64,000 nucleotides of DNA from contig DBOG01000014.1 in assembly GCA_002299915.1 (NCBI GenBank), positions 6,268 to 70,267 on the forward strand, given 5' to 3'. Below the pieces are notes generated by a model. The model had not been told where the DNA came from, did no database searches, and saw only the letters and a list, made by a program, of their open reading frames with translations. Made by a program: the position numbers and the translations under genes. This document shows, piece by piece, positions 9,918 through 34,652 of the stretch (position 1 is its first letter; the number at the start of each line of letters is the position of its first letter). The DNA comes from Proteobacteria bacterium UBA652 (GTDB lineage Bacteria; Pseudomonadota; Gammaproteobacteria; Nitrosococcales; Methylophagaceae).

Positions 9918-9954
9918 TCCGCATTAAATATTGAAGTTTAGAGGGGTATATCTA

Positions 9955-13816: not shown

Positions 13817-15153
13817 TGAAACAAAAACACTATTTTGGTACGGACGGCATTCGCGGCTTAGTGGGTGAAGGCAATATTACCCCAGAATTTGCCTTAAAAC
13901 TAGGTTGGGCGGCAGGTAAGGTGCTGGCAAACAGTGAACATAGCAAAGTTGTTATTGGTAAAGACACTCGGATCTCGGGCTATATGTTTGAATCAGCATT
14001 GGAAGCGGGTTTATCTGCGGCGGGGGTTGATGTGTTATTACTGGGCCCGATGCCCACTCCTGCGATTGCCTATTTAACCCGCACCTTACATGCACAAGCA
14101 GGTATTGTCATCAGTGCCTCGCACAATTCATTTCAAGATAATGGCTTCAAATTCTTTTCCAGCCAAGGCACAAAATTATCAGATGACGTTGAGTTTGCCA
14201 TTGAAGATTTACTTGATCATCCAATAAAAACAGCTGAGCCTGCGATGCTTGGGAAAGCCAGTCGGGTATCAGACGCAGCGGGTAGGTATATTGAATTTTG
14301 TAAAAGCTCAGTGGGTAGGCAAACTGATTTATCGGGAATGAAAATAGTATTAGATTGCGCGCATGGTGCTGGCTATCATGTCGGCCCACAGGTCTTCACC
14401 GAATTAGGGGCGACGGTGGCCACGATTGGTGCAGAGCCAGATGGTTTAAATATTAATCAAGGTTTTGGGGCAACGGCCACAGAAGCCCTACAAGCCGCTG
14501 TACTGACTGAACAGGCGGATGTCGGTATTGCGTTAGATGGTGATGCTGATCGCTTGATTATGGTCGATCACCGTGGTGAGGTAGTGGATGGAGATGAACT
14601 TGTTTGCATGATTGCCCGTAGCCAACAACGGCAAGGTACAGGGAAAGATTCTGTTGTCGGCACGCTAATGACTAATTTAGGCGTTGAGCATGCTTTACAG
14701 CAGCAGGGTATTACACTGCATAGAGCCAATGTGGGTGACCGCTATGTGCTTGAGATGATGAAAAAAACAGACAGCATCTTAGGCGGAGAATCGTCAGGTC
14801 ATATTATCTGTTTAGACCAAACAACCACCGGTGATGCGATTATTGCCGCATTGCAAGTGTTAGTTGAAATGCAGCAAATAGGTAGCAGCCTTAATACACT
14901 GCGGAGTGGCGTCACTAAATATCCACAGAAATTAATTAATGTACGGATACAACAGCAGATTGATTTAGCGAAAAATGATCAGATTATGAACGCAGTAAAG
15001 CAGGCAGAAACACAATTGGCGGATGCCGGGCGTGTGTTATTACGTGCATCGGGCACCGAGCCTGTGATTCGGGTGATGGTAGAAGGGCAAGATGCTTTAT
15101 TGGTGGATAAATTAGCCAATGAATTGGCGGCAGTGATTCAAGAAAATGTATAA
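13813..15153 (+). CDS. glmM: phosphoglucosamine mutase
   Basis: 446 aa. YFGTDGIRG, active-site [21 protein letters not shown] and GGESSGH motifs. ATGA overlap with folP. Confidence 0.95.
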
Positions 15154-15188
15154 GATCGATTGTAGATTATCAAAGCAGAGGTGGGTTT

Positions 15189-15962
15189 GTGCGTAAGCCA
15201 ATGGTAGCAGGAAATTGGAAGATGAATGGTAACTTTGTCAGTAATGAAAAATTACTGGCAGGCTTAGCTGTACAAGCAGAAAAACTAACCGATCTTGATG
15301 TCGCTGTGTTCCCGCCAGCAGTCTATCTACAACAAGTAAAAGAAGCGCTACGGGATACAGGAATCGATTGGGGCACTCAAAACTTATCGCAATTTGATCA
15401 AGGTGCGTATACGGGTGAACTATCAGCAGTCATGCTGAAAGATTTTGCGTGCCGTTATGTCTTGATTGGTCATTCAGAACGCCGCTGCTTATATGCCGAA
15501 CTCGATTTAGATCAGCATGTACTAGATAAAATATGCGGTGAAAAGTATAGCATGGCACTCAATACGGGACTTTCGCCTATTTTATGTATTGGTGAAAGTC
15601 TTGCAGAATATGAAGCGGGTCAAACCGAAGAAATTATTGCGCAATTATTGGATATTGTTATCGCAGAACAAGGTGTAAAGGCTTTATCTAAAGCGGTGCT
15701 CGCTTATGAACCCGTCTGGGCGATTGGCACAGGTAAAACGGCAACGCCTGAGTGGGCGCAGTCTGTACACGAATTTATGCGCAAGCGTATTGCAAAACAT
15801 GATGAAGAAACAGCTGCGGGCATACAAATCCTTTACGGCGGCAGCGTAAAAGGGGATAATGCGACACCGTTATTTTCTATGGCAGATATTGATGGTGGGC
15901 TGATCGGGGGTGCGTCACTTGATGCAGATGAGTTCATTGATATTTGTTTGGCAGCGCTCTAG
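15189..15962 (+). CDS. tpiA: triose-phosphate isomerase
   Basis: 257 aa. VAGNWKMNG, IGHSERR, AYEPVWAIGTGKTAT and YGGSV motifs. GTG start. Confidence 0.9.
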   Translation: MRKPMVAGNWKMNGNFVSNEKLLAGLAVQAEKLTDLDVAVFPPAVYLQQVKEALRDTGIDWGTQNLSQFDQGAYTGELSAVMLKDFACRYVLIGHSERRCLYAELDLDQHVLDKICGEKYSMALNTGLSPILCIGESLAEYEAGQTEEIIAQLLDIVIAEQGVKALSKAVLAYEPVWAIGTGKTATPEWAQSVHEFMRKRIAKHDEETAAGIQILYGGSVKGDNATPLFSMADIDGGLIGGASLDADEFIDICLAAL

Positions 15963-15989
15963 AGTATATTTTTGGAAGAGGTTTTTTAG

Positions 15990-16337
15990 ATGAACATGAT
16001 TTTATTAGTGGCACACATTGCTATCGCAGTGATGTTAGTCGGTTTGATTTTAATCCAGCATGGTAAAGGTGCTGATGCAGGTGCCGCAGCACTTGGTGGT
16101 GGAGGCGGTGGCGCAGGTGGTGGTTCAGGTTCAGTATTTGGTAGCCAAGGTTCGGCTTCATTTCTAAGTCGCAGCAGCGCGATTCTAGCCGCTTTATTTT
16201 TCTGCACCAGCCTAACACTCGCTTATTATTCAGGTAATAATCGTGGCGAATCGGCGGTGAGCGTAACAGAACCTGCTGCAGCAGCCGTTATTGAAGAAGT
16301 TGCCCCCGAGGTAATACCCTCAGATCTACCTGAATAA
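15990..16337 (+). CDS. secG: preprotein translocase subunit SecG
   Basis: 115 aa. Two TM helices flanking a Gly-rich loop (LIQHGKGADAG ... GGG). Conserved position before tRNA-Leu. Confidence 0.85.
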   Translation: MNMILLVAHIAIAVMLVGLILIQHGKGADAGAAALGGGGGGAGGGSGSVFGSQGSASFLSRSSAILAALFFCTSLTLAYYSGNNRGESAVSVTEPAAAAVIEEVAPEVIPSDLPE

Positions 16338-16344
16338 AAAACAT

Positions 16345-16429
16345 GCCGACGTGGTGAAATTGGTAGACACGCCATCTTGAGGGGGTGGTGGCTTAGGCTG
16401 TGGCGGTTCGACTCCGCCCGTCGGCACCA
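16345..16429 (+). tRNA. leuU: tRNA-Leu (anticodon GAG), class II with long variable arm, CCA encoded
   Basis: Acceptor stem GCCGACG/CGTCGGC. Anticodon stem CCATC/GGTGG with loop TTGAGGG. Long variable arm. T-arm GCGGTTCGACTCCGC. Same secG-tRNA-Leu(GAG) linkage as in E. coli. Confidence 0.9.
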
Positions 16430-16440
16430 AAAAAATATAA

Positions 16441-16467
16441 AGCCCGCTTATGTAGCGGGCTTTTTTG
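16441..16467. terminator. bidirectional intrinsic terminator between tRNA-Leu and acs
   Basis: AGCCCGC-ttatgta-GCGGGCT hairpin flanked by an A-run upstream and TTTTTT downstream. Confidence 0.75.
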
Positions 16468-16470
16468 TGC

Positions 16471-18435
16471 CTAAGTTCTCCCTTGTAGCTGCGGTAAAAT
16501 TGATTCATTTTCTAACGTTGAGGTATCAGAGGTGATTTCCTCGCCTTTGGCGATGGTGCGGAGTAGGCGGCGCATGATTTTCCCCGAACGCGTTTTAGGC
16601 AAATTATCCGCATAGCGAATTTCATCGGGTTTGGCGATGGCACCAATTTGCTCGCCAACCCAAGCACGTAGGGTTTGCGTGAGTTCATCGTCAATGCCGC
16701 CAGTAGGGCGTTCACCTTTTAATACGACATAGGCAAACACAGATTCACCCTTGATATCATGGGGTTTGCCGACAATAGCTGCTTCTGCAACCAGTGGGTT
16801 GGCGACTAAGGCAGATTCTATTTCCATGGTGCCAAGCCGATGGCCTGATACATTGAGTACATCATCAATTCGGCCCATGATCCAGAAAAAACCATCTTCA
16901 TCTCGCCGTGCACTATCGCCGGCAAGATAATATTTACCGTCAAAGTAGGGCCAATAACTATCTTGATAGCGCTGGTCATCTCCCCATACGGTTTGGAGCA
17001 TAGAGGGCCAAGGTTGACGGATCACGAGATAACCGCCTTCATTAGCGGTGGTGATTTCTTCACCTTCTTGATTGACGATAGCGGCATCAATACCAGGTAA
17101 GGCACGGGTGCAAGAGCCAGGTTTGGTGGTGGTTGCGCCTGGAACTGGGGCAATCATATGGGCGCCTGTTTCGGTTTGCCACCAAGTGTCTACGATAGGG
17201 CAACGTTCGCCACCGATCACTTTGTGATACCAGATCCAGGCTTCGGGGTTAATGGGTTCGCCGACGGTGCCGAGTAAACGTAATTTGGAGAGATCGTGTT
17301 TGTTGGGGAAATCATCACCTTGTTTGATCAATGCTCGAATGGCGGTGGGCGCGGTATAGAAAATAGTGACGCTATGGCGTTCACACATCTCCCAGAACCG
17401 ACCAGCATCAGGATAGGTGGGTACACCTTCGAATATGACAATCGTTGCTCCTGTCGCCAGTGGGCCATAAGCCACATAACTATGCCCTGTGATCCAACCG
17501 ACATCAGCCGTACACCAAAATACATCGGTATCTTGAATATCGAATACCCAGCGCATAGTAGTAATCGCATTAAGCAAATAACCACCAGAAGAATGTTGGA
17601 TCCCTTTGGGTTTGCCGGTTGAGCCAGAGGTGTAGAGTAAGAATAAGGGATGTGTCGCATCAACCCAAACAGGTTCACAGACGTGGCTTTGGCCTTCTAC
17701 AGCATCCTGCCACCAAATATCGCGCCCAGCTTGCATACTAATATTATGCCCTGTACGTTTGAATACAATCACAGATTCAATACTTTTGCAGCCTGATTCA
17801 AGCGCACTGTCCGTCGTGGCTTTCAGCTCAACAACCCGGCCTCCACGATGTCCGCCATCTGCGGTGATCACCATTTTTGCACGGGTATCTTCAATCCGAT
17901 CTTTTAATGACGAGGCAGAGAATCCGCCAAACACCACAGAATGAATCGCGCCAATTCGGGCGCAGGCTTGCATCGCAACCACGGCTTCGGCAATCATCGG
18001 CATATAGATGATAACGCGGTCGCCTTGGGCAATCCCTTGGGCGGTTAAAGCGTTGGCAAAGGCGCAGACGCGGCTATGGAGTTCGCGATAAGTAATATGT
18101 GCTACATCACCGGCATCACCTTCAAAAATAATGGCTGTTTTATCAGCATGTTTTTCAAGTTGGCGATCTAAGCAGTTATAAGACACATTGAGTTTGCCGT
18201 CGGGAAACCAGCGATAGAAAGGCGCATTGCTATCATCTAATGTTTGGGTAAATGGGGTTTGCCAATCAATCTCACTGCGGGCCTGATTAGCCCAAAAACC
18301 AATATTGTCTTTTTCTGCCGCGGCATATAAATCGGCTAATTTATCCGCAGATAGGCTGGCTGTTTTTAGAAAAGCAGGGCTGGGTGGAAATTGGCGATCT
18401 TCATGCAAGGTTGATTGGATATTATTTTCAGACAT
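16471..18435 (-). CDS. acs: acetyl-CoA synthetase (AMP-forming)
   Basis: 654 aa. [23 protein letters not shown] and [11 protein letters not shown] motifs. Confidence 0.95.
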
Positions 18436-18519
18436 AGTAGAGCCTTCAATGTGTATGTTTTTTCAATAAGGTGAAATAACCACCCTAAAATAATATAGGG
18501 TGGTCATTTTTAATTTGGC

Positions 18520-20040
18520 TTAGAAGAATCCTAGTGGGCTAGTGCTATAGCTAACTAAGAGGTTTTTAGTTTGTTGGTAATGATCGAGCATCATTTTATG
18601 GGTTTCACGACCAATTCCTGATTTTTTGTAGCCACCGAATGCGGCATGGGCCGGATAGAGGTGATAGCAGTTTGTCCAGACGCGGCCTGCTTGAATGCCG
18701 CGACCCATGCGATAGGCAAGATTCATATCACGGGTCCATAATCCTGCCCCTAAACCAAACTCAGTATCATTAGCAATCGCTAAGGCTTCGGCCTCGTCTT
18801 TAAAAGTGGCAACAGACACGACTGGGCCAAAAATTTCTTCTTGGAACACACGCATATTATTAGTGCCTTTTAATAGCGTGGGTTCGATATAGTAGCCGCT
18901 GTCAAATTCACTGCCGACTTGTGCCACTTTCCCACCTAATAGTAATTCGGCCCCTTCTGCTTTACCGATATCCATATAGCTGAGGATTTTGTCGAATTGA
19001 TCTTTTGATGCTTGTGCGCCGACCATGGTTTCCGTGTCCAATGGATTGCCGCGAATGATTTTTTTAGACCGGTCGATAACAATGCTGATGAACTCATCAT
19101 AAATGCTTTCTTGAATTAACGCACGAGAAGGGCAGGTACACACCTCACCTTGGTTGAAGAACGCGAGTACAGCGCCTTCTGCGGCTTTGCTGATATAGTC
19201 ATCTTCTTGATTCATAATATCTTCAAAGAAGATATTGGGTGATTTACCGCCTAACTCAACGGTTGATGGGATTAAACTTTCAGCGGCGCGTTTTAAAATA
19301 TGTTGGCCGACAGGGGTAGACCCGGTGAAAGCAATTTTAGCGATGCGGGAGCTGCTAGCTAATGCTTCGCCTGCTTCTTTACCATAGCCATTAACGATAT
19401 TAAGCACGCCTGGTGGAATTAAATCACCAATCACTTCCATTAATTTTAAGATGGAAACAGGCGTTTGCTCTGCCGGTTTCATTACAATGCAGTTACCCGT
19501 TACTAATGCAGGTGCTAGTTTCCAAGCGGCCATTAACAGCGGGAAATTCCACGGGATAATTTGACCGACCACACCTAGTGGCTCATGGAATTGATACGAT
19601 ACAGTAGTTTCATCAATCTCTCCCATGGTGCCTTCTTGGGCGCGCATACAACCGGCATAATAACGGAAATGATCAACGCATAATGGTACGTCTGCATTGA
19701 GCGTTTCACGAACAGCTTTACCGTTATCCCAAGTTTCAGCAACAGCCAGCATTTCAAGATTCGCTTCAATCCGATCGGCAATTTTGAGCAAGATATTTGA
19801 GCGTTCGGTGACCGATGTTTTCGCCCAAGCGTCTTTTGCGGCATGGGCAGCATCTAAGGCGAGGTTGACATCTTCTTCAGTTGAGCGCGGGATCTCGCAA
19901 AAACCTTCACCTGTAACCGGTGAGACATTACTAAAGTAATCTCCTTTAACAGGCGCGATCCAATCACCATTTATATAGTTACCATAACGTTCTTTGAATG
20001 AAACAACTGCGCCATCTGTACCTGGTTGTGCGTAAATCAT
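18520..20040 (-). CDS. NAD(P)-dependent aldehyde dehydrogenase (acetaldehyde dehydrogenase-like, AldB/ExaC type)
   Basis: 506 aa. [22 protein letters not shown] and [13 protein letters not shown] (catalytic Cys) motifs. Upstream of acs on the same strand. Confidence 0.9.
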
Positions 20041-20194
20041 AAATTTTACTCGCTATTTATTAAAGGGATAAAAGCTTAATCATAAACCTGTTAAAGACAA
20101 ATGTACTTGACTGAGAATCCTAAAAACTTGACTATCATTCCCGAATGGCGCGAGAATTGAATTTATGATTTATAAAACCTCTCTAGCGTAACAG

Positions 20195-21103
20195 ATGCAA
20201 CAGGCATTACTACCACTGTCAAAAAGACGCGAAAAGCGTCAATTATTGGTTGAAAACAAAGTGTCTTTTCAGGGACCAGAATCGATATTGAGTGTGTATG
20301 ATACGTATCGCGCTGCTTCTCGGGTGGGGTTGGATGCGGAACAGTTACTTTATTGTGGCATGGTCAAAGGTCGGAAGATTATGCATGATCTCCACCAAGA
20401 ACAAGGGCAAGTATTTTTGCCGCATGAATCGTATGTGATGCCGCCGGGTGAATATGTTGAAATTGATTTTCCAGAGGCCAATGAAAAACGCCCAACAACC
20501 TGTTTGACTATTGAAATTCCTAAAGATCGGATTGAGTTTTTATCGGAGAGGATGCGGGATATCACTAGGCTAGATACGCTGGAACATGACTGGCAATATC
20601 AGCCGCATGTGATCCATACGCATCACACAGGAGAAACCCAGCAATTATTAGAGCGGCTGGTGACCTTGTTTACTAATAATGTGCCCGATAAGGAGATATT
20701 GGTTGATTTAGGGGTGACGGAACTTATCATTCGTATGCTCAGGCAGCAGGGGCGAGACGTGTTATTAAATGCGTGTCGTTATACTCCTGATACTAATGGT
20801 GTGGTGGCCGTATTGGCATTGATAACACAAAATATCTCACAACCGCTCGATATTGATATGTTATGTAAAAAATCCTGTATGAGCCGAAGTAAATTGTATG
20901 TCGAGTTTAAGAAACAGCTAGGGTGTTCTCCTGGTGAATATCAGCAACAATCTCGGTTAAAAATTGCAGCGGCAGCGATTCAGAATGGCACATCCGTAAC
21001 GGAGGCTTGTTATCGTGTTGGATTTAACGATTTAAGCCATTTTAGCCGTCGATTTACGCAACGCTATGGTTGTGTACCCAGCCGATATCATTCTACTAAA
21101 TAG
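20195..21103 (+). CDS. AraC-family transcriptional regulator
   Basis: 302 aa. C-terminal double HTH (SRSKLYVEFKKQLGCSPGEYQQQSRL ... VGFNDLSHFSRRFTQRYG). Divergent from the aldehyde dehydrogenase gene. Confidence 0.8.
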   Translation: MQQALLPLSKRREKRQLLVENKVSFQGPESILSVYDTYRAASRVGLDAEQLLYCGMVKGRKIMHDLHQEQGQVFLPHESYVMPPGEYVEIDFPEANEKRPTTCLTIEIPKDRIEFLSERMRDITRLDTLEHDWQYQPHVIHTHHTGETQQLLERLVTLFTNNVPDKEILVDLGVTELIIRMLRQQGRDVLLNACRYTPDTNGVVAVLALITQNISQPLDIDMLCKKSCMSRSKLYVEFKKQLGCSPGEYQQQSRLKIAAAAIQNGTSVTEACYRVGFNDLSHFSRRFTQRYGCVPSRYHSTK

Positions 21104-21111
21104 GCATAAAA

Positions 21112-21150
21112 AAGCCCAAGCGACTTAAAAGTAACTTGGGCTTTTGTTTT
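21112..21150. terminator. bidirectional intrinsic terminator between the AraC gene and the DUF937 gene
   Basis: AAGCCCAAG ... CTTGGGCTT hairpin with an A-run on one side and TTTTGTTTT on the other. Confidence 0.65.
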
Positions 21151-21165
21151 GAGCTGGTTTAGTGT

Positions 21166-22293
21166 CTAGCCAGGTTGTGGTTGGAATAAAGCTAGTTTTT
21201 GCACTAACCCTTCTACAACAGGCTTAATAACTGGGCCAACACCTGGGATAGCATCAAGCTTGCTTAGTAATGCTTGAAGTTGAGGCAAGCCATCAGAAAC
21301 AATTTTCATGATCGGCTCTTGCGCAGCTGCAGGCAGTTTATTTAACATGCCCGCTAGATTACCTAGTTCACTTGTTGCTGATGTGAGTTGTGGTAATGCT
21401 GCTTCAGCAGAGGCAACATCAGTGATGCTACCAAGAGAGCTCATAAGGCCGCCCATTACGCTTGTTACATCCTTGCCAAGACTAACACCATTAACAGCAC
21501 CAGCGGCAGAACTTGCCACATCACCCATCGTGTCTCTAGCAGAATCAACAGTACTCCCCATTGTATCTCTTGCAGAATCGACTGTTTCACCAACTGTATT
21601 TCGTGCTGATTCAGCGAGGTTATCTACATCGCCTTTGAAAAACATATTATAAGCAAACCATAAAGCAGCCGCGAGTAATGCAAGCGGTATCAGTTTACCT
21701 AAGAATGATTTTCCTTCACGCGCAACTTGTTGCGGTGCACCAGTTACATTTGAAGATAAGTGTTGAGAGAATCCAGTTGGCATTGCCGCAGTAATATTAT
21801 CTTTTTGGCCATTTAGCATACCCATCAAGCTACCAACATTTAAACCACCGCCACCACCGCCGAGCAATTTGCGTTTAATAACACCAAAAACAATCGGTGC
21901 GAGCAAGCCTAATAATGATTTAACAGGGCCCTTACCAGCGCCACTAAACCCAGCGACGGCACCCACTAGATTACCTAGACCACTACCATTACTACCCAGC
22001 AATGAGCCTAAAACATTTACCCCTGCGCTCATCATACTGCTTTGGCCACTGCCACCCAGTAAGCCGCCTAAGTTATCCAGGATGCTATCATCTTGATCGC
22101 TAATAGCGCCGAGCATGGCTTCGGCACCTGAATTAGATGCGCCAGCTCCCATTAGACCACTTAATAGGCCTGGTAATGCGCTGCTAATTGCGGAACTGTT
22201 TTGGGTGGAATCCCCGCCTAAAACCCCTCCTAGCTGGCTCATTACTTGTTCACTAAGTTGATCTTTAACAAGGTCAATTAAATTAAAACTCAT
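21166..22293 (-). CDS. DUF937-like Gly/Ser-rich membrane protein with short tandem repeats
   Basis: N-terminus MSFNLIDLVKDQLSEQVMSQLGGVLGG plus Gly/Leu/Ser-rich low-complexity region is typical of DUF937. One TM helix (LIPLALLAAALWFAYNMFF). Repeated TVDSARDTMG units. ATG 22293 is 7 nt after GAGGAG. Confidence 0.55.
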   Translation of the reverse strand: MSFNLIDLVKDQLSEQVMSQLGGVLGGDSTQNSSAISSALPGLLSGLMGAGASNSGAEAMLGAISDQDDSILDNLGGLLGGSGQSSMMSAGVNVLGSLLGSNGSGLGNLVGAVAGFSGAGKGPVKSLLGLLAPIVFGVIKRKLLGGGGGGLNVGSLMGMLNGQKDNITAAMPTGFSQHLSSNVTGAPQQVAREGKSFLGKLIPLALLAAALWFAYNMFFKGDVDNLAESARNTVGETVDSARDTMGSTVDSARDTMGDVASSAAGAVNGVSLGKDVTSVMGGLMSSLGSITDVASAEAALPQLTSATSELGNLAGMLNKLPAAAQEPIMKIVSDGLPQLQALLSKLDAIPGVGPVIKPVVEGLVQKLALFQPQPG

Positions 22294-22472
22294 CGTCATA
22301 CTCCTCAATTTGTATGTTTAGTGTTTCCAGACTGAAAATGACTGGAATATAGTTAGCATAACGTAAATTTAGATGTAATGTAATAAAACCGCCACTACGC
22401 TGTGAAAAATTTAGAGAGTGAAGAGAGCGGTAAGATTATTTAGGAGGATAATGATCGAGGATATGAAAAAAT

Positions 22473-22961
22473 ATGCAAAGATATAATTCAGTAATGAGTG
22501 ATGAAAGAAGTCAAGCAATACGTGACGAACGCTATTTCGCTTTGCCTATCGCCCAAGCGAAACAAGAAATCATGGATAAACAGCCTGACCATGCCAAGAA
22601 ATATGTAGCGCCATTGAATGCTTATATACTAAACCACCCAAGGCGATTTTCATTGGCGAAAGAAGTGGCGGACATCGAGGGATCTGCCAATTATCTGGCG
22701 CTCGCGCTTGAACAAACTGCACATGTCTCAGGTCAGGTAGATTTATCGGCAGTAAAAATAATTATGATGGAATATTATGCTGACGAGGGGCAGTTACCCA
22801 GAACAAAAACGGCGGTTATTGGCTTACTAAATGAGCGCCTAGGCCGTCGATTATTCAATCGTTATGAATTGCTTGAGTATGAAGGTAATGATATGGGGTT
22901 TTCTATCATTTTTCGGAATATTGAACAAAACAAGAAAGTGGCACTTGAAGCGAATATTTGA
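22473..22961 (+). CDS. hypothetical protein (no recognised family)
   Basis: 162-aa ORF in an otherwise empty interval upstream of nuoA. No signal peptide or TM helix. Start uncertain (22473 or 22494). Confidence 0.35.
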   Translation: MQRYNSVMSDERSQAIRDERYFALPIAQAKQEIMDKQPDHAKKYVAPLNAYILNHPRRFSLAKEVADIEGSANYLALALEQTAHVSGQVDLSAVKIIMMEYYADEGQLPRTKTAVIGLLNERLGRRLFNRYELLEYEGNDMGFSIIFRNIEQNKKVALEANI

Positions 22962-23099
22962 ACGAGAATTTTATTTGTCTTATCGCCTATTAGTATAGCA
23001 ATTAAAAGGGTCTAAAATAAATCGAATTTTAGTGCGGAGCGTGCTGGATTGGTTTATAATTAGTCCAACTTATACCTTATTATAAGAAGATAGCGTCAT

Positions 23100-23456
23100 A
23101 TGCTGGAGAGTTACCTACCTATCCTATTATTCATTCTGCTGGGAATCGGCTTTGGAGTTGGCCCGCTATTAGCAGGATTCGTTTTGGGCGCCCATCGTCC
23201 TGACGCTGAGAAAAGCTCTACTTATGAATGTGGATTTGAGCCGTTTGAAGATGCACATATGAAGTTTGATGTGCGCTATTATTTGGTGGCTATCCTATTT
23301 ATTATTTTTGATTTAGAAATCGCTTTTTTATTCCCCTGGGCCGTCGTGCTTGATGAAATTGGCATATTCGGCTTGCTGGCGATGTTTTTATTTCTTGCCA
23401 TTTTGGTGGTGGGTTTCGTTTATGAATGGATGAAAGGCGCATTGGAATGGGAATAG
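23100..23456 (+). CDS. nuoA: NADH-quinone oxidoreductase subunit A
   Basis: 118 aa, three TM helices, YECGFEPF and [11 protein letters not shown] motifs. Confidence 0.92.
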
Positions 23457-23947
23457 AAGGGGTATTAGAAGAAGGGATCGTCACCACTTCTGCAGATAAA
23501 TTAATTAATTGGGCGCGAACAGGATCGCTGTGACCAATGACCTTTGGTTTGGCATGTTGTGCTGTGGAGATGATGCAAGCAGGAGCGTCACGCTATGATT
23601 TAGATCGCTTTGGAGTGGTGTTTCGGCCGAGTCCGCGGCAATCTGATGTGATGATCGTAGCGGGCACATTGGTGAATAAAATGGCACCTGCGTTGCGTAA
23701 GGTGTATGACCAAATGTCAGAGCCGCGCTGGGTGATCTCGATGGGGTCTTGTGCTAATGGTGGTGGCTATTATCATTATTCTTATGCCGTGGTGAGGGGA
23801 TGTGATCGGATTGTGCCGGTTGATATTTATGTGCCGGGTTGCCCGCCGACTGCCGAAGCCTTGCTGTATGGCATTATCCAGTTACAAAATAAAATAAAAC
23901 GCACGCATACGATTGCACGTCAGCCTTCTCAAATGGAGGAAGCTTAA
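23447..23947 (+). CDS. nuoB: NADH-quinone oxidoreductase subunit B, interrupted by an in-frame TGA at 23531-23533
   Basis: ATG 23447 overlaps the nuoA stop. The frame reads [45 protein letters not shown] ... [10 protein letters not shown] ... VPGCPP. The TGA sits where homologs have the Trp of the SLWP motif. The ORF track only reports the part from ATG 23537. Confidence 0.8.
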
Positions 23948-23953
23948 CGCCGC

Positions 23954-24622
23954 ATGGAAACGCTTCAGGAGAAATTACTCAGCCATTTTAAATCAACAGG
24001 GAAAATATGTGAGTTGGTGCATGATGAGTTAACCATGCAAGTGCCAGCAGAAAGTGTGGTGGAAGTGTGTACGCAACTGCGGGATGAATTTGGCTTTGAG
24101 CAGTTAATAGACCTTTGCGGTGTGGATTATTCGGAATATGGCGGTGCTGCTTGGTCAACTAAAGACACCGGTTTTAGTCGCGCAGTAAACACATCGGATA
24201 ACACCTTACGAGAAGAATCAGGCCAGCGTTTTGGGGTGGTGTATCACTTGTTATCGATTAGCGAGAACCAACGTGTTCGGGTTAAAATTCGCTTAGATGC
24301 TGAGGCGCCTGTCGTTGATAGCGTGGTGCCCGTATGGGCATCGGCAGATTGGTTTGAGCGCGAGGCATTCGATTTATTTGGCATCCTATTTAATGGCCAT
24401 CAAGATTTACGCCGTATCCTGACAGACTATGGCTTTATCGGCCATCCGTTCCGCAAAGATTTCCCGATCAGTGGCCATGTTGAAATGCGCTACGATCCTG
24501 AGAAGAAACGGGTGGTGTATGAACCTGTTCAGATTGAACCTAGAACATTGGTTCCCCGTGTTATTCGAGATGATAACCGCTATCATGTCGAACCCTCGAA
24601 AAGAAGGTTGCGTAATGGCTGA
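23954..24622 (+). CDS. nuoC: NADH-quinone oxidoreductase subunit C
   Basis: 222 aa. [23 protein letters not shown] and HPFRKDFP motifs. Confidence 0.9.
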
Positions 24623-25868
24623 AATTCAAAACTATACCTTAAATTTTGGGCCACAACATCCTGCGGCGCATGGTGTATTGCGGTTAATCCTTGAGATGGA
24701 AGGTGAGGTGATTCAACGTGCGGATCCGCATATTGGGTTATTGCATCATGGCACGGAGAAATTAGCAGAAACCAAACCCTATAATCAAAGCATTGGCTAT
24801 ATGGATCGGCTCGATTATGTGTCGATGATGTGTAATGAGCACGCCTATGTGAAGGCGATTGAGACCATGCTGGGGGTAGATGTGCCTGAACGGGCACAAT
24901 ATATTCGGGTGATGTTTGATGAGATCACGCGGATCTTAAATCATTTGATGTGGTTGGGTGCGCATGGGTTAGATATCGGCGCGATGACGATATTTTTGTA
25001 TTGTTTCCGTGAGCGTGAAGATCTGATGGATTGTTATGAGGCCGTATCGGGCGCACGTTTGCATGCAACCTATTATCGCCCAGGTGGTGTGTATCGCGAT
25101 TTACCCGATAGTATGCCGCGCTATGAAGCCTCGAAATGGCATAGCGAAGAAGAAGTGAAAAAGAAAAACACCAACCGTGAAGGCAGCTTATTAGACTTCA
25201 TTGCCGATTTTACCGATCGCTTCCCTGGGTGTGTCGACGAATATGAAACCTTATTGACGGATAACCGTATTTGGAAACAGCGTACGGTGGGGATTGGTGT
25301 GGTTTCTCCAGAGCGCGCCCTGCAATTAGGGTTTACGGGACCAATGTTGCGCGGATCGGGTATTGCGTGGGATTTACGCAAAAAACAGCCTTATGCTGTT
25401 TATGACAAGATGAAATTTGATATTCCAGTTGGGGTAGAAGGCGATTGCTATGATCGTTATTTAGTACGCGTGGAAGAAATGCGGCAATCGAATGAGATTG
25501 TTAAACAATGTGTGGCTTGGTTGAAAGACAATCCGGGCGATGTGATGTCGAATGATTTGAAAGTGTCGCCACCGCCCCGCACAGAAATGAAAACAAGCAT
25601 GGAAGGCTTGATTCATCACTTCAAACATTTCACTGAAGGCTATTGTGTGCCAGAAGGTGAAATTTATTCTGCTGTCGAACATCCTAAAGGCGAATTTGGC
25701 ATTTATATGGTGTCGGATGGGGCGAACAAGCCTTATCGGGTAAAAATTCGTGCGCCGGGATTTGTACATTTATCGGCGATGGATGAAATGATTAAGGGAC
25801 ATATGTTGGCGGATGTGGTTGCGGTGATTGGTACGATGGATATTGTGTTTGGTGAGGTGGATAGATAA
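24615..25868 (+). CDS. nuoD: NADH-quinone oxidoreductase subunit D
   Basis: 417 aa from [24 protein letters not shown] to DIVFGEVDR. The ATG overlaps the nuoC stop (ATGGCTGA). Confidence 0.95.
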
Positions 25869-26368
25869 TGCAACTCACAGGCTCACGCGACGAATTATTC
25901 AGTGCTGACATCCGTACACAAATCGCGGTGTGGCTGGCGAAATACCCAGAAAATCAAAGTCAATCTGCCTTGATCCCTGCATTACATATTGTGCAAGATG
26001 CGAGTGGTGGTTGGTTGAGTGAGGCAACGCTTGATGCGGTGGCAGTGTATTTGGATCTGCCCAAAATCGCCGTGTATGAAGTGGCAACATTCTATGGCAT
26101 GTTTGAGCTTTCGCCTGTTGGCAAACATAAAATTAATGTGTGTACGAATATTTCTTGTCAACTTAATGGCTCAGATAAAGTAGTAGCACAATTAACAGAA
26201 AAATTAGGCGTTGGGCTAGGCGAAACAACGGCGGATGGCAATATTACGCTGAAAGAAGTGGAATGTATGGGGGCTTGTTGTGGTGCACCTATGTTGGAAG
26301 TGAACCGTGATTATCATGAGTTTTTGACGCCTGCAAAGATTGATGAAATTCTAGCGGGGCTAAAATAA
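25868..26368 (+). CDS. nuoE: NADH-quinone oxidoreductase subunit E
   Basis: 166 aa. 2Fe-2S cysteines in CTNISC and CMGACCGAPM. Confidence 0.9.
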   Translation: MQLTGSRDELFSADIRTQIAVWLAKYPENQSQSALIPALHIVQDASGGWLSEATLDAVAVYLDLPKIAVYEVATFYGMFELSPVGKHKINVCTNISCQLNGSDKVVAQLTEKLGVGLGETTADGNITLKEVECMGACCGAPMLEVNRDYHEFLTPAKIDEILAGLK

Positions 26369-26369
26369 A

Positions 26370-27663
26370 ATGGCATTAGATTTAGTCTGTTTCCGCACCC
26401 GGCACGCTTGAATCCTATTTGAGTGTGGGCGGTTATAAGCAATTAGAACGGGTGTTGAAAGACGGCATTTCTTCAGATGATATTATCGAAGAATTAAAAG
26501 ATTCTGCTTTGCGCGGCCGGGGTGGAGCAGGGTTTCCGACAGGCTTGAAATGGAGCTTTATGCCGCGACGGATGCCAGGCTCAAAATATATTGTGTGTAA
26601 TTCGGATGAAGGCGAGCCGGGCACATGTAAGGATCGAGATATTCTGCGATTTAACCCGCATCAATTGATCGAAGGCATGATTATCGCGGGGTATACGATT
26701 GGCGCACAATCGGGCTATAACTATATCCGTGGTGAGTTTTATGAGCCGATTGATCGGTTTGAGGCGGCCTTAAAAGAAGCGTATGAAGCGGGTTATTTAG
26801 GTAAAGAGATATTCGGCAGTAAATTTAGTTTTGATTTATATACACAAATGGGCGCGGGTGCCTATATTTGTGGTGAGGAAACGGCATTATTAGAATCTTT
26901 AGAAGGTAAAAAAGGCCAGCCACGTTATAAACCGCCTTTCCCTGCTGGTTTTGGCTTATATGGTAGGCCGACCACGATTAATAATACGGAAACTTTGGCA
27001 TCTGTCCCTGTGATCCTTGAAAAAGGGGGGGATTGGTTCCATGAAATTGGTACGCCAAATAATGGTGGGCCTAAAATATTCAGTGTGTCGGGTCATGTCA
27101 ATAATCCGGGTAATTTTGAAGTGCCGATGGGGATGCCTTTTTCAGAATTATTAGCGCTTGCTGGTGGGATGAAAGATGGCAATAAAATTAAGACGGTGAT
27201 TCCGGGCGGTTCATCGACGCCTATTATTCCAGGCGAAGAGATGATGGATGTGCCGCTGAGTTATGACGGCATTAGTAAGGCGGGTTCGATGTTGGGCGCC
27301 GGATCTGTGATCGTAATGGATGAAACGACCTGCATGGTGCGTGCTCTGGAACGGATTGCTGAATTTTATTATGAAGAATCTTGTGGTCAATGCACGCCTT
27401 GCCGCGAGGGAACTGGCTGGTTATATCGCGTGGTAAAACGAATTGAGCATGGCGAGGGCAAACAGGAAGATTTAGATAAACTGGTGGATGTCGCCCATAA
27501 TATTGATGGTAATACGATTTGCGCTTTAGGCGATGCGGCGGCTGCGCCTGTGATTAGTTTTATCAAGCATTTCCGTGAAGAATTTCAATATCATATCGAT
27601 CATGGTCGCTGCATGTGTGGTGATACTGCAATCCCTGAAATGGGGGAGGCACAGCATGGTTAA
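26370..27663 (+). CDS. nuoF: NADH-quinone oxidoreductase subunit F, 5' end in a different frame (apparent +1 frameshift about 26395-26410)
   Basis: The main ORF has [31 protein letters not shown] and [12 protein letters not shown]. The conserved [11 protein letters not shown] is encoded upstream of the first possible start (TTG 26419) in that frame. The ATG at 26370 (2 nt after nuoE) encodes [10 protein letters not shown], resembling NuoF N-termini as I recall them, and then stops at 26409. Confidence 0.85.
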
Positions 27664-29998
27664 GATTGAAATTGATGGCATGCCGATGACTGCCGATCCG
27701 TCGAAGATGATTATTCAAGTGGCGGATGAAGCAGGGATTGATATCCCCCGTTTTTGTTACCACAAGAATCTCTCGATCGCGGCAAATTGTCGGATGTGTT
27801 TGGTGGAAGTGGATCAATCTCGTAAAGCTTTACCCGCTTGCGCCACACCAGTAACCGAAGGGATGAAAGTATTTACCCTCTCTAAGCGCGCAATAGCGGC
27901 ACAACGTGGGGTGATGGAATTTTTATTGATTAACCATCCCTTAGATTGCCCGATTTGTGATCAGGGTGGTGAATGTGAATTACAGGATCTGTCCATCGGT
28001 TATGGTGGCGATGTGAGCCGATTCACTGAAGGTAAACGGGTGGTGAAAGATAAGGAAATCGGCCCACTCGTCGGCACAGATATGACGCGGTGCATCCATT
28101 GCACACGTTGCGTACGCTTCGGCCAGGAAATTGCGGGTATTAGGGAAATGGGTGCGGTTGGCCGTGGCGAGCACATGGAAATCGGTACGTATGTTGAAAA
28201 GAGCCTGATATCAGAATTATCAGGCAATATTATTGATCTTTGCCCCGTGGGCGCACTGGTTTCAAAACCTTTCCATTATAAGGCACGTGCTTGGGAATTA
28301 ACCGCTCATACCTCTATTTCACCCCATGATTGTATGGGCTCTAATATTGAATTTCATACCCGTCGGAATGAAGTGATGCGAGTGGTGCCGCGTGAGAATG
28401 AAGATGTCAACGAAACGTGGATTTCGGATCGCGATCGCTTTAGTTATCTGGCGTTGAATCATGAACAACGATTATATAAGCCGATGATCAAAACCAATGC
28501 GGGTTGGCAAGAAGCCGATTGGCAGACCGCATTAGAATTTGCAGTTGAAGGGTTACAGAATGTGACAAGAACAGAAGGCGCTGCCCAATTAGGCGGCCTG
28601 CTATCATCAACGGCAACCGTAGAAGAAGGCTATTTATTCCAGAAATTACTCCGCGGCATGGGCACAAATAATATTGATCACCGTTTGCGCCAGCAAGATT
28701 TTGCAGATCAAGTAGATGCACCAGCAACGGCCCCATGGCATGTATGTGACTTTGGTGCCAGTGATGCGGTGATGTTGATTGGCTGTAATATTCGTGCCGA
28801 ACAACCGATGATTGCCCATCGGATCCGCCAAGGTGCATTAAATGGATCATCGGTGAATGTGATCAATTTCTTTGCAATGGATTGTTTGATGCCAGTGGAT
28901 AAGCAGCTGGTGGTTGATACCCAGAGTATGGTGAATTTGCTGGTAGAAATTGCAGTTGAACTCACAACCGAGACCAAGGTAGCCGTTCCTCGCGCATGGG
29001 GAAAACTATTAAAAGATGTGAAACCTACCGCTGAAGCGGAAGCACTGGCAGGGCAGCTCATCCGCGCAGCTAGGGCGACGCTTTTTGTGGGCGCATTGGT
29101 GGATCATCATCCACAAGCGGCGACGATTCGAGCATTGGTGCGGTTTATTGCGTCATTGAGTAATAGTTACATCGTGATTTTACCAACTGCCAATGATAAT
29201 GGTTTGACGCTTGCTGGCGCGATACCGTATTCAACCGAACAAAAAGGGCTGAATGCAGATGCGATGATGGCAGAGTCGTTAAGGGCTTATTTATTATTAG
29301 GCACGGAGCCAGAATTAGATTGTGCGAATCAAAGCGAAGCATTAGATTCATTGAAACAAGCTGAGTTTGTGGTGACTTTGAATTGTTTTATGACGGATGC
29401 GATGCGCTCGTATGCCAATGTTATCCTACCAATCGCCAGTTTCGCTGAAACCTCGGGAACGTATGTGAATGTTGATCAGCTCTGGCAGTCTTTTACGGGG
29501 GCTGTGAGCCCCGTGGGTGAAAGCCGCCCTGCGTGGAAAGTATTGCGGGTATTGGGTAATTTGGCAGAAGTGGCTGGTTTTGAGTATGTGTCTTCAGAAG
29601 AAGTACGGGATGCAGTACAGTTGGAGATTGAACAAACGTCTGCCGCCGCAAAAGAAACCTTTGTGCCTGATACGCTAACAGTACCAAAGTCAGATCTGAT
29701 TTGGGTGGCAGAAGTACCGAGTTATCAAGCAGATAGTTTGACTCGTCGCAGTGATGCGCTGCAGGCAACGCCTGAAAATCAACTTGCTAATATTGCGCGG
29801 ATGAACACAGCAGAGGCGACACGACATGGTGTTGAGAAATCAATACGGATTACTGTAACGCAAGATGATGCGTCGGTGACTGTTGCATTTGAATTAGATG
29901 ATACGATTGCCGATGGCTGTTTATATCTAGCAGGTGGCACCATTAAGTCAATTGGATTGGGTGCGGCGTATACGGCCGTGAGTGTACAGCATGATTGA
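27656..29998 (+). CDS. nuoG: NADH-quinone oxidoreductase subunit G
   Basis: 780 aa from MVKIEIDG. 2Fe-2S and 4Fe-4S motifs ([40 protein letters not shown]). The ATG overlaps the nuoF stop. Confidence 0.95.
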
Positions 29999-31070
29999 TT
30001 TATTGATGTCGATTGTCGATTGGGTTACCGCACAGACAGTGCTCTATACCATGATCAAAATTGTGGCTATCATTGCACCACTATTATTGACCGTCGCGTA
30101 TGTAACGTATGCAGAACGGAAGGTGATTGGTTATATTCAAGTTCGGATTGGCCCAAATCGCGTTGGACCGTTTGGTTTATTACAGCCGATTGCAGATGGC
30201 TTAAAGCTGATGCTGAAAGAAGTAATCTTGCCGGCAAAATCGAATATGTATTTATTTGTAATTGCACCGGTATTAGCTATCGCGCCTGCTTTGGCTGCAT
30301 GGGCAGTAATGCCCTTCGATGCGACCCTCACATTGGCAAATATTGATGCAGGCTTACTGTATATTTTAGCCATTACTTCTATGGGTGTGTATGGCATTAT
30401 TATTGCGGGCTGGGCATCGAATTCTAAATATGCGCTATTGGGTGCGTTGCGGTCAGCGGCACAAGTGGTCTCTTATGAAATCGCGATGGGCTTTGCTTTG
30501 GTCGGCGTGTTGGTTGCGGCGGGCAGCTTGAATATGGGTGATATTGTACTGGCACAACAAGGCGGATTCTGGCATTGGTATTGGTTGCCATTATTGCCTT
30601 TATTTGTAGTGTATTTTATTTCAGGTGTGGCCGAAACCAACCGTGCGCCGTTTGATATGGCAGAAGGGGAATCTGAGATTGTCGCGGGTTTCCATGTGGA
30701 ATATTCGGGGATGGCCTTTGCCGTTTTCTTCCTCGCGGAATATGCCGATATGATTTTGATTTCCATGCTAGCGGCAGTCCTATTTTGTGGTGGTTGGTTA
30801 TCGCCGTTTGAAGGGACTTTTTTAGCCGATTTCTTTGCATGGGTGCCAGGTATTATTTGGCTATTTATGAAAACGTCTTTCTTTTTATTCCTCTATCTTT
30901 GGTTCCGCGCTACTTTTCCTCGCTATCGCTATGACCAAGTGATGCGTTTGGGCTGGAAGATTTTTATCCCAGTAACGCTGGTATGGCTCGTCGTCGTTTC
31001 GACAGCCCAAGTAATGGATGTGGGGATTTGGTTTAATGAACAAGCGGATGCATTGAGGGCGGCGTTATGA
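29991..31070 (+). CDS. nuoH: NADH-quinone oxidoreductase subunit H
   Basis: [45 protein letters not shown] and [15 protein letters not shown] motifs. ATG 29991 overlaps the nuoG stop. Confidence 0.95.
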
Positions 31071-31558
31071 TGCAAGCCTTAAAACATTATGTAAAAAGCT
31101 TTATGCTCTGGGAATTATTGCTGGGGATGAAATTAACAGGCAAGTATTTATTTGCCAAGAAAATAACCGTGCAATATCCCGAAGAGAAAACGCCACAATC
31201 ACCGCGTTTTAGAGGTTTACATGCCTTACGCCGCTATCCCAATGGCGAAGAACGGTGCATCGGCTGTAAATTATGTGAGGCTGTGTGCCCTGCGCTGGCG
31301 ATTACGATTGATTCCGAGCCACGCGATGATGGCACCCGTCGTACCACGCGTTATGAAATTGATTTGTTCAAGTGTATTTATTGTGGATTTTGTGAAGAAT
31401 CTTGCCCGGTTGACTCGATTGTGGAAACGCGGGTATTCGATTATCACTTTGAAAACCGCGAAGACAGCATTATGACAAAAGAGAAGTTATTAGCAGTGGG
31501 CGATAAAAATGAAGATCAAATAGCCGCCGATCGTGCCGCCGACGCGAGGTATAGATAA
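31067..31558 (+). CDS. nuoI: NADH-quinone oxidoreductase subunit I
   Basis: 163 aa. Two 4Fe-4S motifs, [12 protein letters not shown] and [12 protein letters not shown]. Confidence 0.95.
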
Positions 31559-32187
31559 TGGAAAAATATATTTTTTATGCCTTTGCCGCTATTTTATTAT
31601 TTTCCGCAACCATGGTGATTACAGTGAGAAATCCCGTACGTGCGGCTTTATTCCTCGTATTAGCTTTCTTTACCAGCGCAGGAATTTGGCTGATGCTAGA
31701 AGCAGAGTTTTTAGCGATCACTTTAGTGCTAGTCTATGTCGGCGCGGTGATGGTGTTATTTTTATTCGTGGTGATGATGCTGAATGTGAATCTGACACCT
31801 GTACAAGAGGGCTTTACCCGTTATTTGCCGCTCGGCATCTTAGTGGCGGCATTGATTACGGCTGAAATGATTGCCGTATTAGGCGCATCTCATTTTGGAT
31901 TAGATATCGTATCCGCGCCGATTGCCCATGGTGCTAATTATAGTAATACTAAGGAGTTAGGGCGATTGCTGTATACCGTGTATGTGTATCCGTTTGAGAT
32001 CGCATCGGTGATTTTAACCGTGGCAATTGTGGCGGCGATTACGCTGACGCTACGCCGTAAAACCAGTAAATTCCAAGATCCAGGGAAGCAAGTGAAAGTT
32101 CGCCGCGAAGATAGGGTGCGCTTAGTTAAAATGGACGCAGTGAAACCTAAACCACCTGCGGTAGCATCGGAGGAGACAGCATCATGA
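31558..32187 (+). CDS. nuoJ: NADH-quinone oxidoreductase subunit J
   Basis: 209 aa, five TM helices. NPV-AAL-LV and [17 protein letters not shown] motifs. Confidence 0.9.
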
Positions 32188-32495
32188 CTGCGATTGCATT
32201 ATCAGATTACTTGATCCTAGGTGCATTATTGTTCAGCTTATCCGTAGCGGGTTTATTTATTAACCGTAAAAATATTATTATTTTACTGATGTGTATCGAG
32301 TTGATGCTGTTGGCTGTAAACCTAAATTTTATTGCTTTCTCCCATTTTGCTGGCGATATAGCAGGCCAGATATTTGTATTCTTTATTCTCACCGTGGCCG
32401 CAGCAGAGGCGGCGATTGGGCTGGCCATTTTAGTGGTGTTGTTTAGAAATATGAGCACCATTAATGTGGCTGATTTAGATCAGTTGAAGGGGTAA
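32184..32495 (+). CDS. nuoK: NADH-quinone oxidoreductase subunit K
   Basis: 103 aa, three TM helices. [14 protein letters not shown] and [13 protein letters not shown] motifs. Confidence 0.92.
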
Positions 32496-32499
32496 GGGA

Positions 32500-32700
32500 A
32501 TGAATGGGTTTGCTTTTTTCCCACTGATTATATTCGGTTTTATCGCGTTTTTATTGTTAGGATTTGTCTTGATATTTTTGTTTCGAGATAAAAGTAAGGA
32601 TATCAAGAATAATAAGCAGGCACTGAAGGGGTTGGTAGGTGTGCTATCTGGGAAAATGGGAAATTCCATGCCTGTTGTGGAACGGGTGAGAAGGGATTGA
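32500..32700 (+). CDS. small single-pass membrane protein inserted between nuoK and nuoL (no recognised family)
   Basis: 66-aa ORF. The ATG is 4 nt after the nuoK stop and is preceded by AAGGGG. The TGA overlaps the nuoL ATG (TGATG). N-terminal hydrophobic helix FAFFPLIIFGFIAFLLLGFVLIFLF followed by a Lys/Arg-rich tail. Confidence 0.45.
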   Translation: MNGFAFFPLIIFGFIAFLLLGFVLIFLFRDKSKDIKNNKQALKGLVGVLSGKMGNSMPVVERVRRD

Positions 32701-34652
32701 TGATAAATCAAAGTTTATTATTAACCATCGTCCTCGCACCTTTATCGGGGAGTGTGATCGCGGGGCTATTTGGTTATCGCATCGGTAGAACTGCTTCACA
32801 TTGGGTAGCCGTTTTAGGGGTGGCGATTGCTTTTATCTTATCGACCTATGTACTAAAGCTGGTACTGAATGGCGCGACTTATAATGTGGCGGTATACCAG
32901 TGGATGCAAGTGGGCTCACTCAGCCTTGAAGTGGGCTTTATGGTGGATTCACTGACGGCGATGATGATGGTGGTGGTGACCTTTGTCTCCTTAATGGTGC
33001 ATATTTATACTATCGGTTATATGCACGATGATGATGGTTATACCCGCTTCTTCAGCTATATTTCCTTATTTACCTTTGCCATGTTGATGCTGGTGATGGC
33101 AAATAATTTCATGCAATTATTTTTTGGCTGGGAAGCAGTCGGATTGGTCTCTTATTTATTGATTGGATTCTGGTATAAAAAACCGACCGCCATTTATGCC
33201 AACCTCAAAGCATTCTTGGTCAATCGCGTAGGTGATTTTGGCTTCATCCTCGGGATTGCAGCGGTATTGATGTACACAGGAAGTCTGGATTATGTCACGG
33301 TGTTTGCCCAAGCACCGGAGATGGCAACCCAAACCATGAGCCTGTTTTCAGGCACACAATGGTCAGTAATGACGGTGACTTGTATTTTGTTATTTATCGG
33401 TGCAATGGGTAAATCAGCCCAAGTGCCATTACATGTGTGGCTACCTGATTCAATGGAAGGCCCAACGCCAATTTCAGCTTTGATCCATGCGGCGACAATG
33501 GTAACAGCAGGTATTTTTATGGTGGCGCGGATGTCGCCCTTATTTGAATTCTCAGAAACAGCGCTGTCGTTTGTGTTGGTGATCGGTGCAATTACGGCGT
33601 TATTTATGGGTTTCTTGGGGCTGATTCAAAATGATATTAAGCGGGTGGTGGCGTATTCAACCTTATCTCAACTAGGCTATATGACGGTGGCGCTCGGTGT
33701 ATCGGCTTACTCAGCCAGTGTTTTCCATTTAATGACCCATGCTTTCTTTAAAGCGTTGTTATTCCTCGCTGCTGGCTCGGTGATCATGGCCATGCATCAT
33801 GAACAAGATATTCGCAAAATGGGGGGCTTGAAAAAATATGTGCCGATTACTTATTGGACGAGTTTAATCGGATCATTGGCTTTAATCGGTATGCCGGGCT
33901 TTGCAGGGTTCTTCTCCAAAGATACGATTATAGAAGCGGTGCATGCCTCGCATATTACAGGCAGTGGATTTGCTTATTTTGCAGTGGTGGTAGGGGTGTT
34001 TATTACGGCGTTATATAGTTTTCGAATGTTTTTCCTCGTATTCCACGGCAAAGAACGATTCGATGCCCATGGTCATCCGCCACATGAATCTCCAGCAGTG
34101 GTGACAGTCCCGCTCATTTTATTGGCGATTCCTTCAGTGGTGGCGGGTTATTTGCTGAGTAAAATGGTATTTGGTGATTTCTTTGAGGGGGCAATTATCG
34201 TGCACCCTGAACATGATGTATTGGCACATGCTGCGGAAAACTTTCATGGGCTATGGGGATTCATGTTGCACGGCATGCAACAACTTCCCTTCTGGCTAGC
34301 AATTTCAGGGGTGGCAACGGCTTATTTCCTTTATTTAAAACGACCGGATTTACCACCGCTGATCCAACGGCGATTAAGCTGGGTGCATCGTGTTCTCGAT
34401 AATAACTATTATTTTGATGCCTTTAATGAAAAAGTTTTTGCCGGCGGTGCGAGATTGAAAGGAAAATTACTGTGGCAGCTGGGCGATCAGAAGTTGATTG
34501 ATGGCTGGGGGGTGAATGGTGTCGCAAAATCGGTTGGTTGGATAGCAAAAACGGTGCGTAAGCTGCAATCAGGATTGTTATACCACTATGCCTTTGCGAT
34601 GATGATTGGCGTGTTAGTGCTGCTCTATTGGCCAAGGATATCGGGCACATGA
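32700..34652 (+). CDS. nuoL: NADH-quinone oxidoreductase subunit L
   Basis: About 650 aa antiporter-like subunit. [48 protein letters not shown]. ATG 32700 (a TTG at 32697 is also possible). Confidence 0.95.
   Translation: [650 protein letters not shown]

Follow-up and report, generated by a model that had tools for sequence, protein, structure and literature searches.

A premature TGA at the invariant Trp-29 codon of nuoB coexists with the intact TGG allele in one gammaproteobacterial population and very probably marks a complex I operon in decay

Mycobacterium leprae has lost its nuo operon and exemplifies the stepwise decay of an operon through unitary pseudogenes. A TGA codon in place of a conserved tryptophan is also met in organisms that read UGA as Trp (translation table 4), namely Mycoplasma and some reduced endosymbionts. 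Even under the ordinary code termination may be leaky, and UGA followed by C is reportedly the weakest termination context in bacteria. The general weakness of UGA_C termination has been documented (PMC9841425). NuoB, known as Nqo6 or PSST (NDUFS7) in other systems, is the complex I subunit concerned here; in the E. coli protein, residues 43-53 stay disordered until the peripheral arm docks on the membrane arm and the complex is assembled, and the quinone-site wedge is built by residues 58-69 (PMC8357420).

The window, that is, the whole 64,000-nucleotide stretch of DNA that was analysed, appears to come from an uncultured Methylophagaceae/Piscirickettsiaceae-like gammaproteobacterium. Its open reading frames place all 14 genes from nuoA to nuoN on the + strand between 23100 and 37506 (Table 1). 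nuoB begins at ATG 23447, within the end of nuoA (stop TAG 23454-23456), and its frame runs through 28 family-typical codons into a TGA at 23531-23533 and continues in sense codons up to TAA 23945-23947. The base after the TGA is C and the next ATG lies at 23537. This layout had been described in the first-pass annotation and matches the sequence, as does its claim that the TGA replaces the conserved Trp of the SLWP motif. Codon 29 is TGG in all of the closest species representatives examined in a genome-wide scan (18/18) and in the syntenic outgroup L088 (82% DNA identity), and the aligned mitochondrial PSST chains of solved structures retain the Trp within an NWARTGS(L/I/M) block.

Table 1. 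Features of the nuo operon in the window. Replacements in NuoG are numbered on the 807-aa ORF that starts at 27575.
Feature	Position	Strand	Remarks
nuoA	23100-23456	+	118 aa, intact; PF00507; 114/118 aa identical to outgroup
nuoB 5' fragment	23447-23530	+	28 sense codons; helix at membrane-arm interface
Premature stop TGA (W29*)	23531-23533	+	A at 23533, G in other strains
nuoB 3' ORF	23537-23947	+	136 aa from ATG; all four N2 Cys ligands
nuoC	23954-24622	+	ORF intact
nuoD	24615-25868	+	ORF intact; derived R45H in window lineage
nuoE	25868-26368	+	ORF intact
nuoF 5' remnant	26370-26411	+	17-bp deletion after ~26403 shifts the frame
nuoF remainder, shifted frame	26419-27663	+	NuoF profile positions 20-410 of 410
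nuoG	27656-29998	+	780 aa, ORF intact; derived H102L, H301Y, A457V in window lineage
nuoH, nuoI, nuoJ, nuoK	29991-32495	+	ORFs intact in window; missing from part of the population (5,871-bp deletion)
66-aa predicted membrane ORF, nuoK/nuoL interval	32500-32700	+	stop overlaps nuoL ATG (TGATG)
nuoL	32700-34652	+	ORF intact
nuoM	34649-36157	+	ORF intact; right end of the 5,871-bp deletion at 35497 in other strains
nuoN	36154-37506	+	450 aa vs 483; in-frame 99-bp deletion ~37389-37401

Outside the stop, the encoded protein shares 89-97% identity with the NuoB of relatives. The 136-aa 3' ORF, which gene callers annotate as a truncated NuoB, matches NF005012 with 238 bits (cut-off 116) over profile positions 39-164 of 166; the codons for positions 1-38 precede the TGA. 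The NuoB family profile (PF01058, NF005012) is recognisable together with all four N2-cluster Cys ligands, located at positions 37, 38, 102 and 132 of the read-through protein. What the window lacks is an uninterrupted frame that includes the N-terminal helix and SLWP, and this frame is intact in the allelic contigs L097, L099 and L103. The segment cut off by the TGA is predicted to comprise the conserved helix and SLWP, which stand immediately ahead of the tandem-Cys N2 ligands; we take the 5' fragment to correspond to residues 43-53 of E. coli NuoB and W29 to E. coli W55.

Some neighbouring features deserve a record of their own. The 162-aa ORF directly upstream of nuoA (22473-22961) matches no Pfam or NCBIfam family and is the only member of its protein cluster; at its position the outgroup carries GGDEF and trypsin-like genes instead. 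The 66-aa ORF between nuoK and nuoL (MNGFAFFPLIIFGFIAFLLLGFVLIFLF...) is predicted to encode a single-pass membrane protein translationally coupled to nuoL. Gene calls include it in every strain but not in the outgroup L088, and a profile search returned no family match for this likewise singleton cluster. Many database proteins of 221-289 aa (for example, P0010, P0012, and P0028) contain the NuoA (PF00507) and NuoB (PF01058) domains together. Such entries may reflect genuine nuoA-nuoB fusions, or else gene calls that went wrong where the two genes overlap at ATGGGAATAG.

The premature TGA recurs in many independent datasets and is therefore not an artefact of a single assembly. Contigs of X1 (2015), X2 (2024), X5 (2019) and X6 (2021) cover the codon with no difference from the window, and X3 and X9 likewise read A at 23533. 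The assembled loci L081-L084, 99.56-99.98% identical to the window, all have TGA, and the exact 136-aa 3' ORF is encoded in JGI and ENA assemblies, again with TGA in every case. Altogether, five or more sequencing studies (2015-2024) and five independent assemblies agree on the TGA at full depth.

Position 23533 is nevertheless G, giving TGG and Trp, in other strains of the same population. The G stands at full depth in X4 (13.4/13.4), X7 (69.9/69.9), and X8 (25.4/25.4), and in X4 it is the sole difference over 780 bp. TGG is also found in contigs L097 (JGI), L099 (NCBI MAG GCA_002299945.1), and L103 (Logan). L097 and L090 both derive from a single JGI contig of 78,987 nt, 99.8% identical to the window, which encodes a NuoB of 166 aa, a NuoF of 436 aa and a NuoN of 483 aa and has all 14 nuo genes intact. 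TGA and TGG are alleles coexisting in one natural population. The TGG-carrying runs and contigs are 99.8-99.9% identical to the window; because the TGG and TGA haplotypes are only ~0.1-0.2% apart, the TGA allele appears to be young. The codon is thus disrupted relative both to the orthologues of relatives, which have TGG, and to an intact allele in the same population. The first-pass annotation had named the recovery of TGG on re-sequencing as the result that would speak against its reading. TGG is indeed recovered from some samples (X4, X7, X8, and the contigs), but elsewhere the base is A, and the site is polymorphic.

L099 at first seemed to carry insertions in nuoF and nuoH on its TGG haplotype. 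The inserts are scaffold gaps filled with N, and the contig is uninformative on nuoF. The gaps (9630-9991 and 14201-14516) fall exactly at the nuoF indel site and inside nuoH, which suggests that the source sample was polymorphic there and that the assembler broke. A separate peculiarity concerns 36 nt within nuoB (23750-23785), where k-mer depth is in 5- to 90-fold excess in every metagenome and the assembly graph breaks in all runs; the excess arises because this stretch is identical across many taxa.

Three further lesions lie in the operon of TGA-carrying strains or datasets. Comparison with L081 revealed a 17-bp deletion in nuoF (~26403/26404) that shifts the frame near the start of the gene. 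It is present in the window, X1, X2, X6, L082/L096, and L083/L102, and the nuoF start is intact in L081/L098, L097, X3, X4, X5, X8, X9, and the outgroup. In nuoN, a 99-bp deletion situated between the imperfect 12-nt direct repeats GCCATTATTGCA and GCCATTGTTGCA takes out 33 residues, equal to one transmembrane segment. The NuoN of the window accordingly has 450 aa compared with 483 aa in four cluster members that are 99-100% identical, and its profile match stops at position 414 of 483; the deletion is shared by X1 only among the runs, and other strains encode 483 aa. The largest lesion, a 5,871-bp deletion read from unitig junctions and depth arithmetic, is absent from the window and has its junction (29625/35497) in X3, X5, and X6. 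It creates an in-frame NuoG(1-656)-NuoM(291-502) fusion with loss of nuoH-L. Scans of JGI metagenome contigs for this junction and for either nuoB allele gave no match, in a collection from which these samples are absent. In X5, the depths of the junction (123.1) and of the undeleted sequence (65.5) add up to approximately that of the flanks (186-203), and the deletion amounts to ~65% of the population by depth; the corresponding values in X3 are 13.3 and 14.8 against a flank of ~34.

All three lesions occur only in TGA-carrying strains or datasets and none is found in the TGG-carrying X4, X8, and L097/L090, an association behind which stand few independent haplotypes, TGG being known from five datasets only. 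Each of the two small deletions shares a contig with the TGA, whereas the 5,871-bp deletion and the TGA are linked by their co-occurrence in datasets. The order of the lesions is nested, with the TGA in all, the nuoF deletion in a subset and the nuoN deletion in the window and X1, and the 5,871-bp deletion lies on a separate TGA branch. As a control, ~40 kb of flanking genes were inspected in the same runs. Only intergenic or in-frame small indels were present, and no frameshift was seen in any confident flanking gene of this ~40 kb.

Amino acid replacements in the operon point in the same direction. Four whole haplotypes (window, L096, L097, and L098) were aligned over 13100-30207 and polarised by the outgroup L088. 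In nuoA-G, the TGA lineages carry seven derived amino acid changes (NuoC P196L, NuoD R45H, NuoE N100K, and NuoG H102L, H301Y, A457V, and L737F, the last of ambiguous direction with Arg in the outgroup) against at most one synonymous change, and the TGG contig has no nonsynonymous changes specific to it. Long-term divergence of nuoA-G amounts to 177 nonsynonymous and 847 synonymous codons; the 7:1 ratio departs from this (Fisher p = 3.5e-5) and fits the neutral expectation (p = 0.46). Within the population, the nonsynonymous to synonymous ratio is 8:2 for the operon and 5:9 for flanking genes on the same contigs, a marginal contrast (p = 0.047). Short-term polymorphism always over-represents nonsynonymous changes, and the contrast with the flanks is therefore counted as supporting evidence only. 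The lesions in nuoF, nuoN, and nuoG-M, together with the 7:1 ratio, are those of a pseudogene under relaxed constraint.

Other measures of constraint were set aside. The raw Logan ratios of nonsynonymous to synonymous SNPs (12:2 for nuoC-G, 4:24 for nuoH-N, and ~25:24 for controls) are confounded by recombination-like clusters of synonymous SNPs, and the contig-based, outgroup-polarised count was used instead. SNP density also failed as a signal of relaxation: the upstream control has 15 SNPs in 19.9 kb, but the downstream one has ~69 in 19.9 kb and is operon-like. In the membrane-arm genes nuoH-N, the SNPs of the Logan tables are mostly synonymous (the 4 to 24 above), and the clustered ones look like imported recombination tracts that would be mute on recent constraint. 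Tight, mostly synonymous clusters common to several runs lie at 33710-33731 (nuoL) and 35086-35128 (nuoM), and clusters of the same kind lie outside the operon at 55531-55549 (gatA) and 7234-7242 (within ORF 6208-9432); this is the pattern that would be expected of short homologous-recombination imports from a diverged relative. L081/L098 has seven SNPs within 22967-23078, a 112-bp stretch presumed to be the nuo promoter or leader, against almost none in the neighbouring kilobases. These SNPs may have been imported by recombination, or regulatory constraint may be relaxed locally.

The TGA is very probably a G-to-A nonsense, loss-of-function allele that coexists with TGG, the complex I operon being in decay in the strains that carry it. 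A sequencing or assembly error that conceals a true G and an intact nuoB, the base-call error contemplated by the first-pass annotation, could appeal to the datasets with TGG. This option is refuted by the full-depth TGA in many independent datasets: A is read at full depth in X1, X2, X3, X5, X6, and X9 with no G variant reported, TGA is found in JGI, ENA, and NCBI assemblies alike, and G is likewise at full depth in different runs, which has the look of a true between-strain polymorphism. An error has practically no chance of being the explanation. The same can be said with near certainty of recoding, in which UGA would be read here as Trp in the manner of code 4/25 or as selenocysteine. A TGA at a Trp codon is the classic signature of UGA-to-Trp reassignment, but UGA closes 20 of the 56 long ORFs of the window with normal boundaries, among them nuoG, H, J, L, and M, where the overlaps are of the usual ATGA type. 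nuoB is the only window gene split by a lone in-frame stop, the premature TGA of nuoF being a product of the frameshift, and the Trp codons visible in nuoA and nuoB are TGG; G+C content is ~45%. The window as a whole thus does not show reassignment according to table 4/25. As for selenocysteine, no SECIS-like hairpin is present and homologues have Trp at the site, never Cys or Sec, so that the marks of a selenoprotein are missing. No structured RNA element was detected in the 76 nt around and downstream of the TGA, whose minimum free energy of -19.6 kcal/mol compares with a shuffle mean of -20.8 (z = 0.39).

Two escapes at the level of translation, both raised in the first-pass annotation, bear on whether the allele is null. 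If tRNA-Trp decoded UGA-C often enough for a working NuoB, the allele would be a tolerated hypomorph. The weak UGA-C context, the restoration of the exact wild-type residue by tRNA-Trp, the 28 upstream codons still intact and the wide occurrence of TGA haplotypes in samples from 2015-2024 are in keeping with this, and some full-length NuoB is probably made through the weak stop. Functional read-through is nonetheless highly improbable. The UGA is conserved in no relative, with TGG in 18/18 representatives, the outgroup and part of the population, and no stimulatory structure accompanies it, so neither hallmark of programmed read-through is present. In the same genome nuoF is frameshifted and NuoN is short of 33 residues, and other TGA samples have the nuoH-L deletion, lesions that an enzyme still under selection would not tolerate. 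The ratio of amino acid changes looks neutral as well, and the mutation is young enough, with TGG and TGA contigs ~0.1% apart, to account for the upstream codons being intact. The other escape is a restart at ATG 23537, yielding a NuoB of 136 aa that lacks its first 30 residues and assembles into an active complex. This ATG lies 3 nt past the stop, and terminating ribosomes can restart at such a short distance by translational coupling. The product would span profile positions 39-164 of 166 with all four Cys ligands, and both the lesion at nuoB codon 29 and that at nuoF codons 13-18 are placed such that translation restarting further down could still yield most of the protein's length, as if function were preserved. 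What would be missing, however, is the conserved helix and SLWP just before the quinone-site wedge, a block kept from bacteria to the aligned mitochondrial chains. The only Shine-Dalgarno-like element, AGGA, is 14 nt upstream of the ATG, a poor spacing, and the downstream lesions argue that the complex is no longer maintained. A functional restart is thus very unlikely. Read-through or restart may yield traces of NuoB, and as low-level molecular events both proposals are plausible; as functional rescue they are not. With the frameshift in nuoF and a NuoN deprived of a transmembrane segment in the same window, neither could make complex I functional, and judged from these genes neither would rescue the complex of this genome. 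That further parts of the operon are so freely lost in TGA-carrying strains argues against either escape having kept a function on which selection could act. The metatranscriptomes X25, X26, and X15 contained no coverage of this organism.

The preferred reading, a recent nonsense mutation, had been among the options of the first-pass annotation and is upheld by the TGG allele persisting in near-identical strains and by the further lesions accumulating in the operon. A single G-to-A transition in one lineage would have turned the invariant Trp-29 codon TGG into an ordinary UGA and truncated NuoB after 28 residues. Selection on the rest of the operon would then have relaxed, complex I having either stopped working or been dispensable already. 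In the lineage of the window, the nuoB TGA would have been followed by the 17-bp frameshift in nuoF, and then by the 99-bp deletion in nuoN and the NuoD and NuoG replacements; the other TGA branch would have acquired the 5,871-bp deletion and its in-frame NuoG(1-656)-NuoM(291-502) fusion. The TGA presumably abolishes enzyme activity, and the loss is presumably tolerable thanks to a further NADH dehydrogenase encoded elsewhere in the genome; no nqr or ndh gene is present in the parts of the window that were annotated. Complex I may have been dispensable before the TGA arose, which would alter which event was causal and not the nature of the TGA. This is ordinary gene loss caught in progress and not a signal of recoding.

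A more speculative and on balance rather unlikely extension is that loss of complex I was positively selected in a vent- or plume-associated population, in which the null allele would have risen to dominance at most sampled sites over at least nine years (2015-2024). Were this so, shedding a 14-subunit enzyme would be an advantage, for example where Na+-NQR or NDH-2 suffices, and one species would comprise two respiratory ecotypes, told apart by the TGG and TGA haplotypes. Annotators should mark nuoB, nuoF, and nuoN of this genome as disrupted and not take the TGA for recoding; in metabolic reconstruction, no working complex I should be credited to this MAG. Public metagenomes (2015-2024) still contain the founding nonsense mutation, the nested deletions and the ancestral allele in intact form, and the order and tempo of operon decay can be read directly and could be used to test neutral against adaptive simplification of a respiratory chain. 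No new mechanism is revealed; only the timing is unusual.

Set against the NuoB/Nqo6/PSST (NDUFS7) family, the protein encoded here has the expected 89-97% identity outside the stop and all N2 ligands, but its frame is broken at an invariant Trp and it is a disrupted member. With the table 4 code it shares a TGA at a conserved Trp position, whereas UGA here ends about a third of the window genes, the case is a single occurrence and G+C is ~45%. The stop codon, the +4 base and the original Trp that would be inserted are those of leaky UGA-C decoding by tRNA-Trp. In this locus, however, the context is the ancestral TGG-CCA with one base changed, and it bears no sign of selection on the context, of conservation or of a stimulatory element. 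The closest parallel is unitary pseudogene formation and stepwise operon decay as in M. leprae: a single nonsense mutation hits a conserved gene, functionally linked genes then acquire frameshifts and deletions and lose amino acid constraint, and close relatives keep intact orthologues. It differs in that the host is probably free-living and the examined flanking genes are without decay, and in that the process is seen at its very start and still polymorphic, with intact and broken operons ~0.1-0.2% apart co-occurring in environmental samples.
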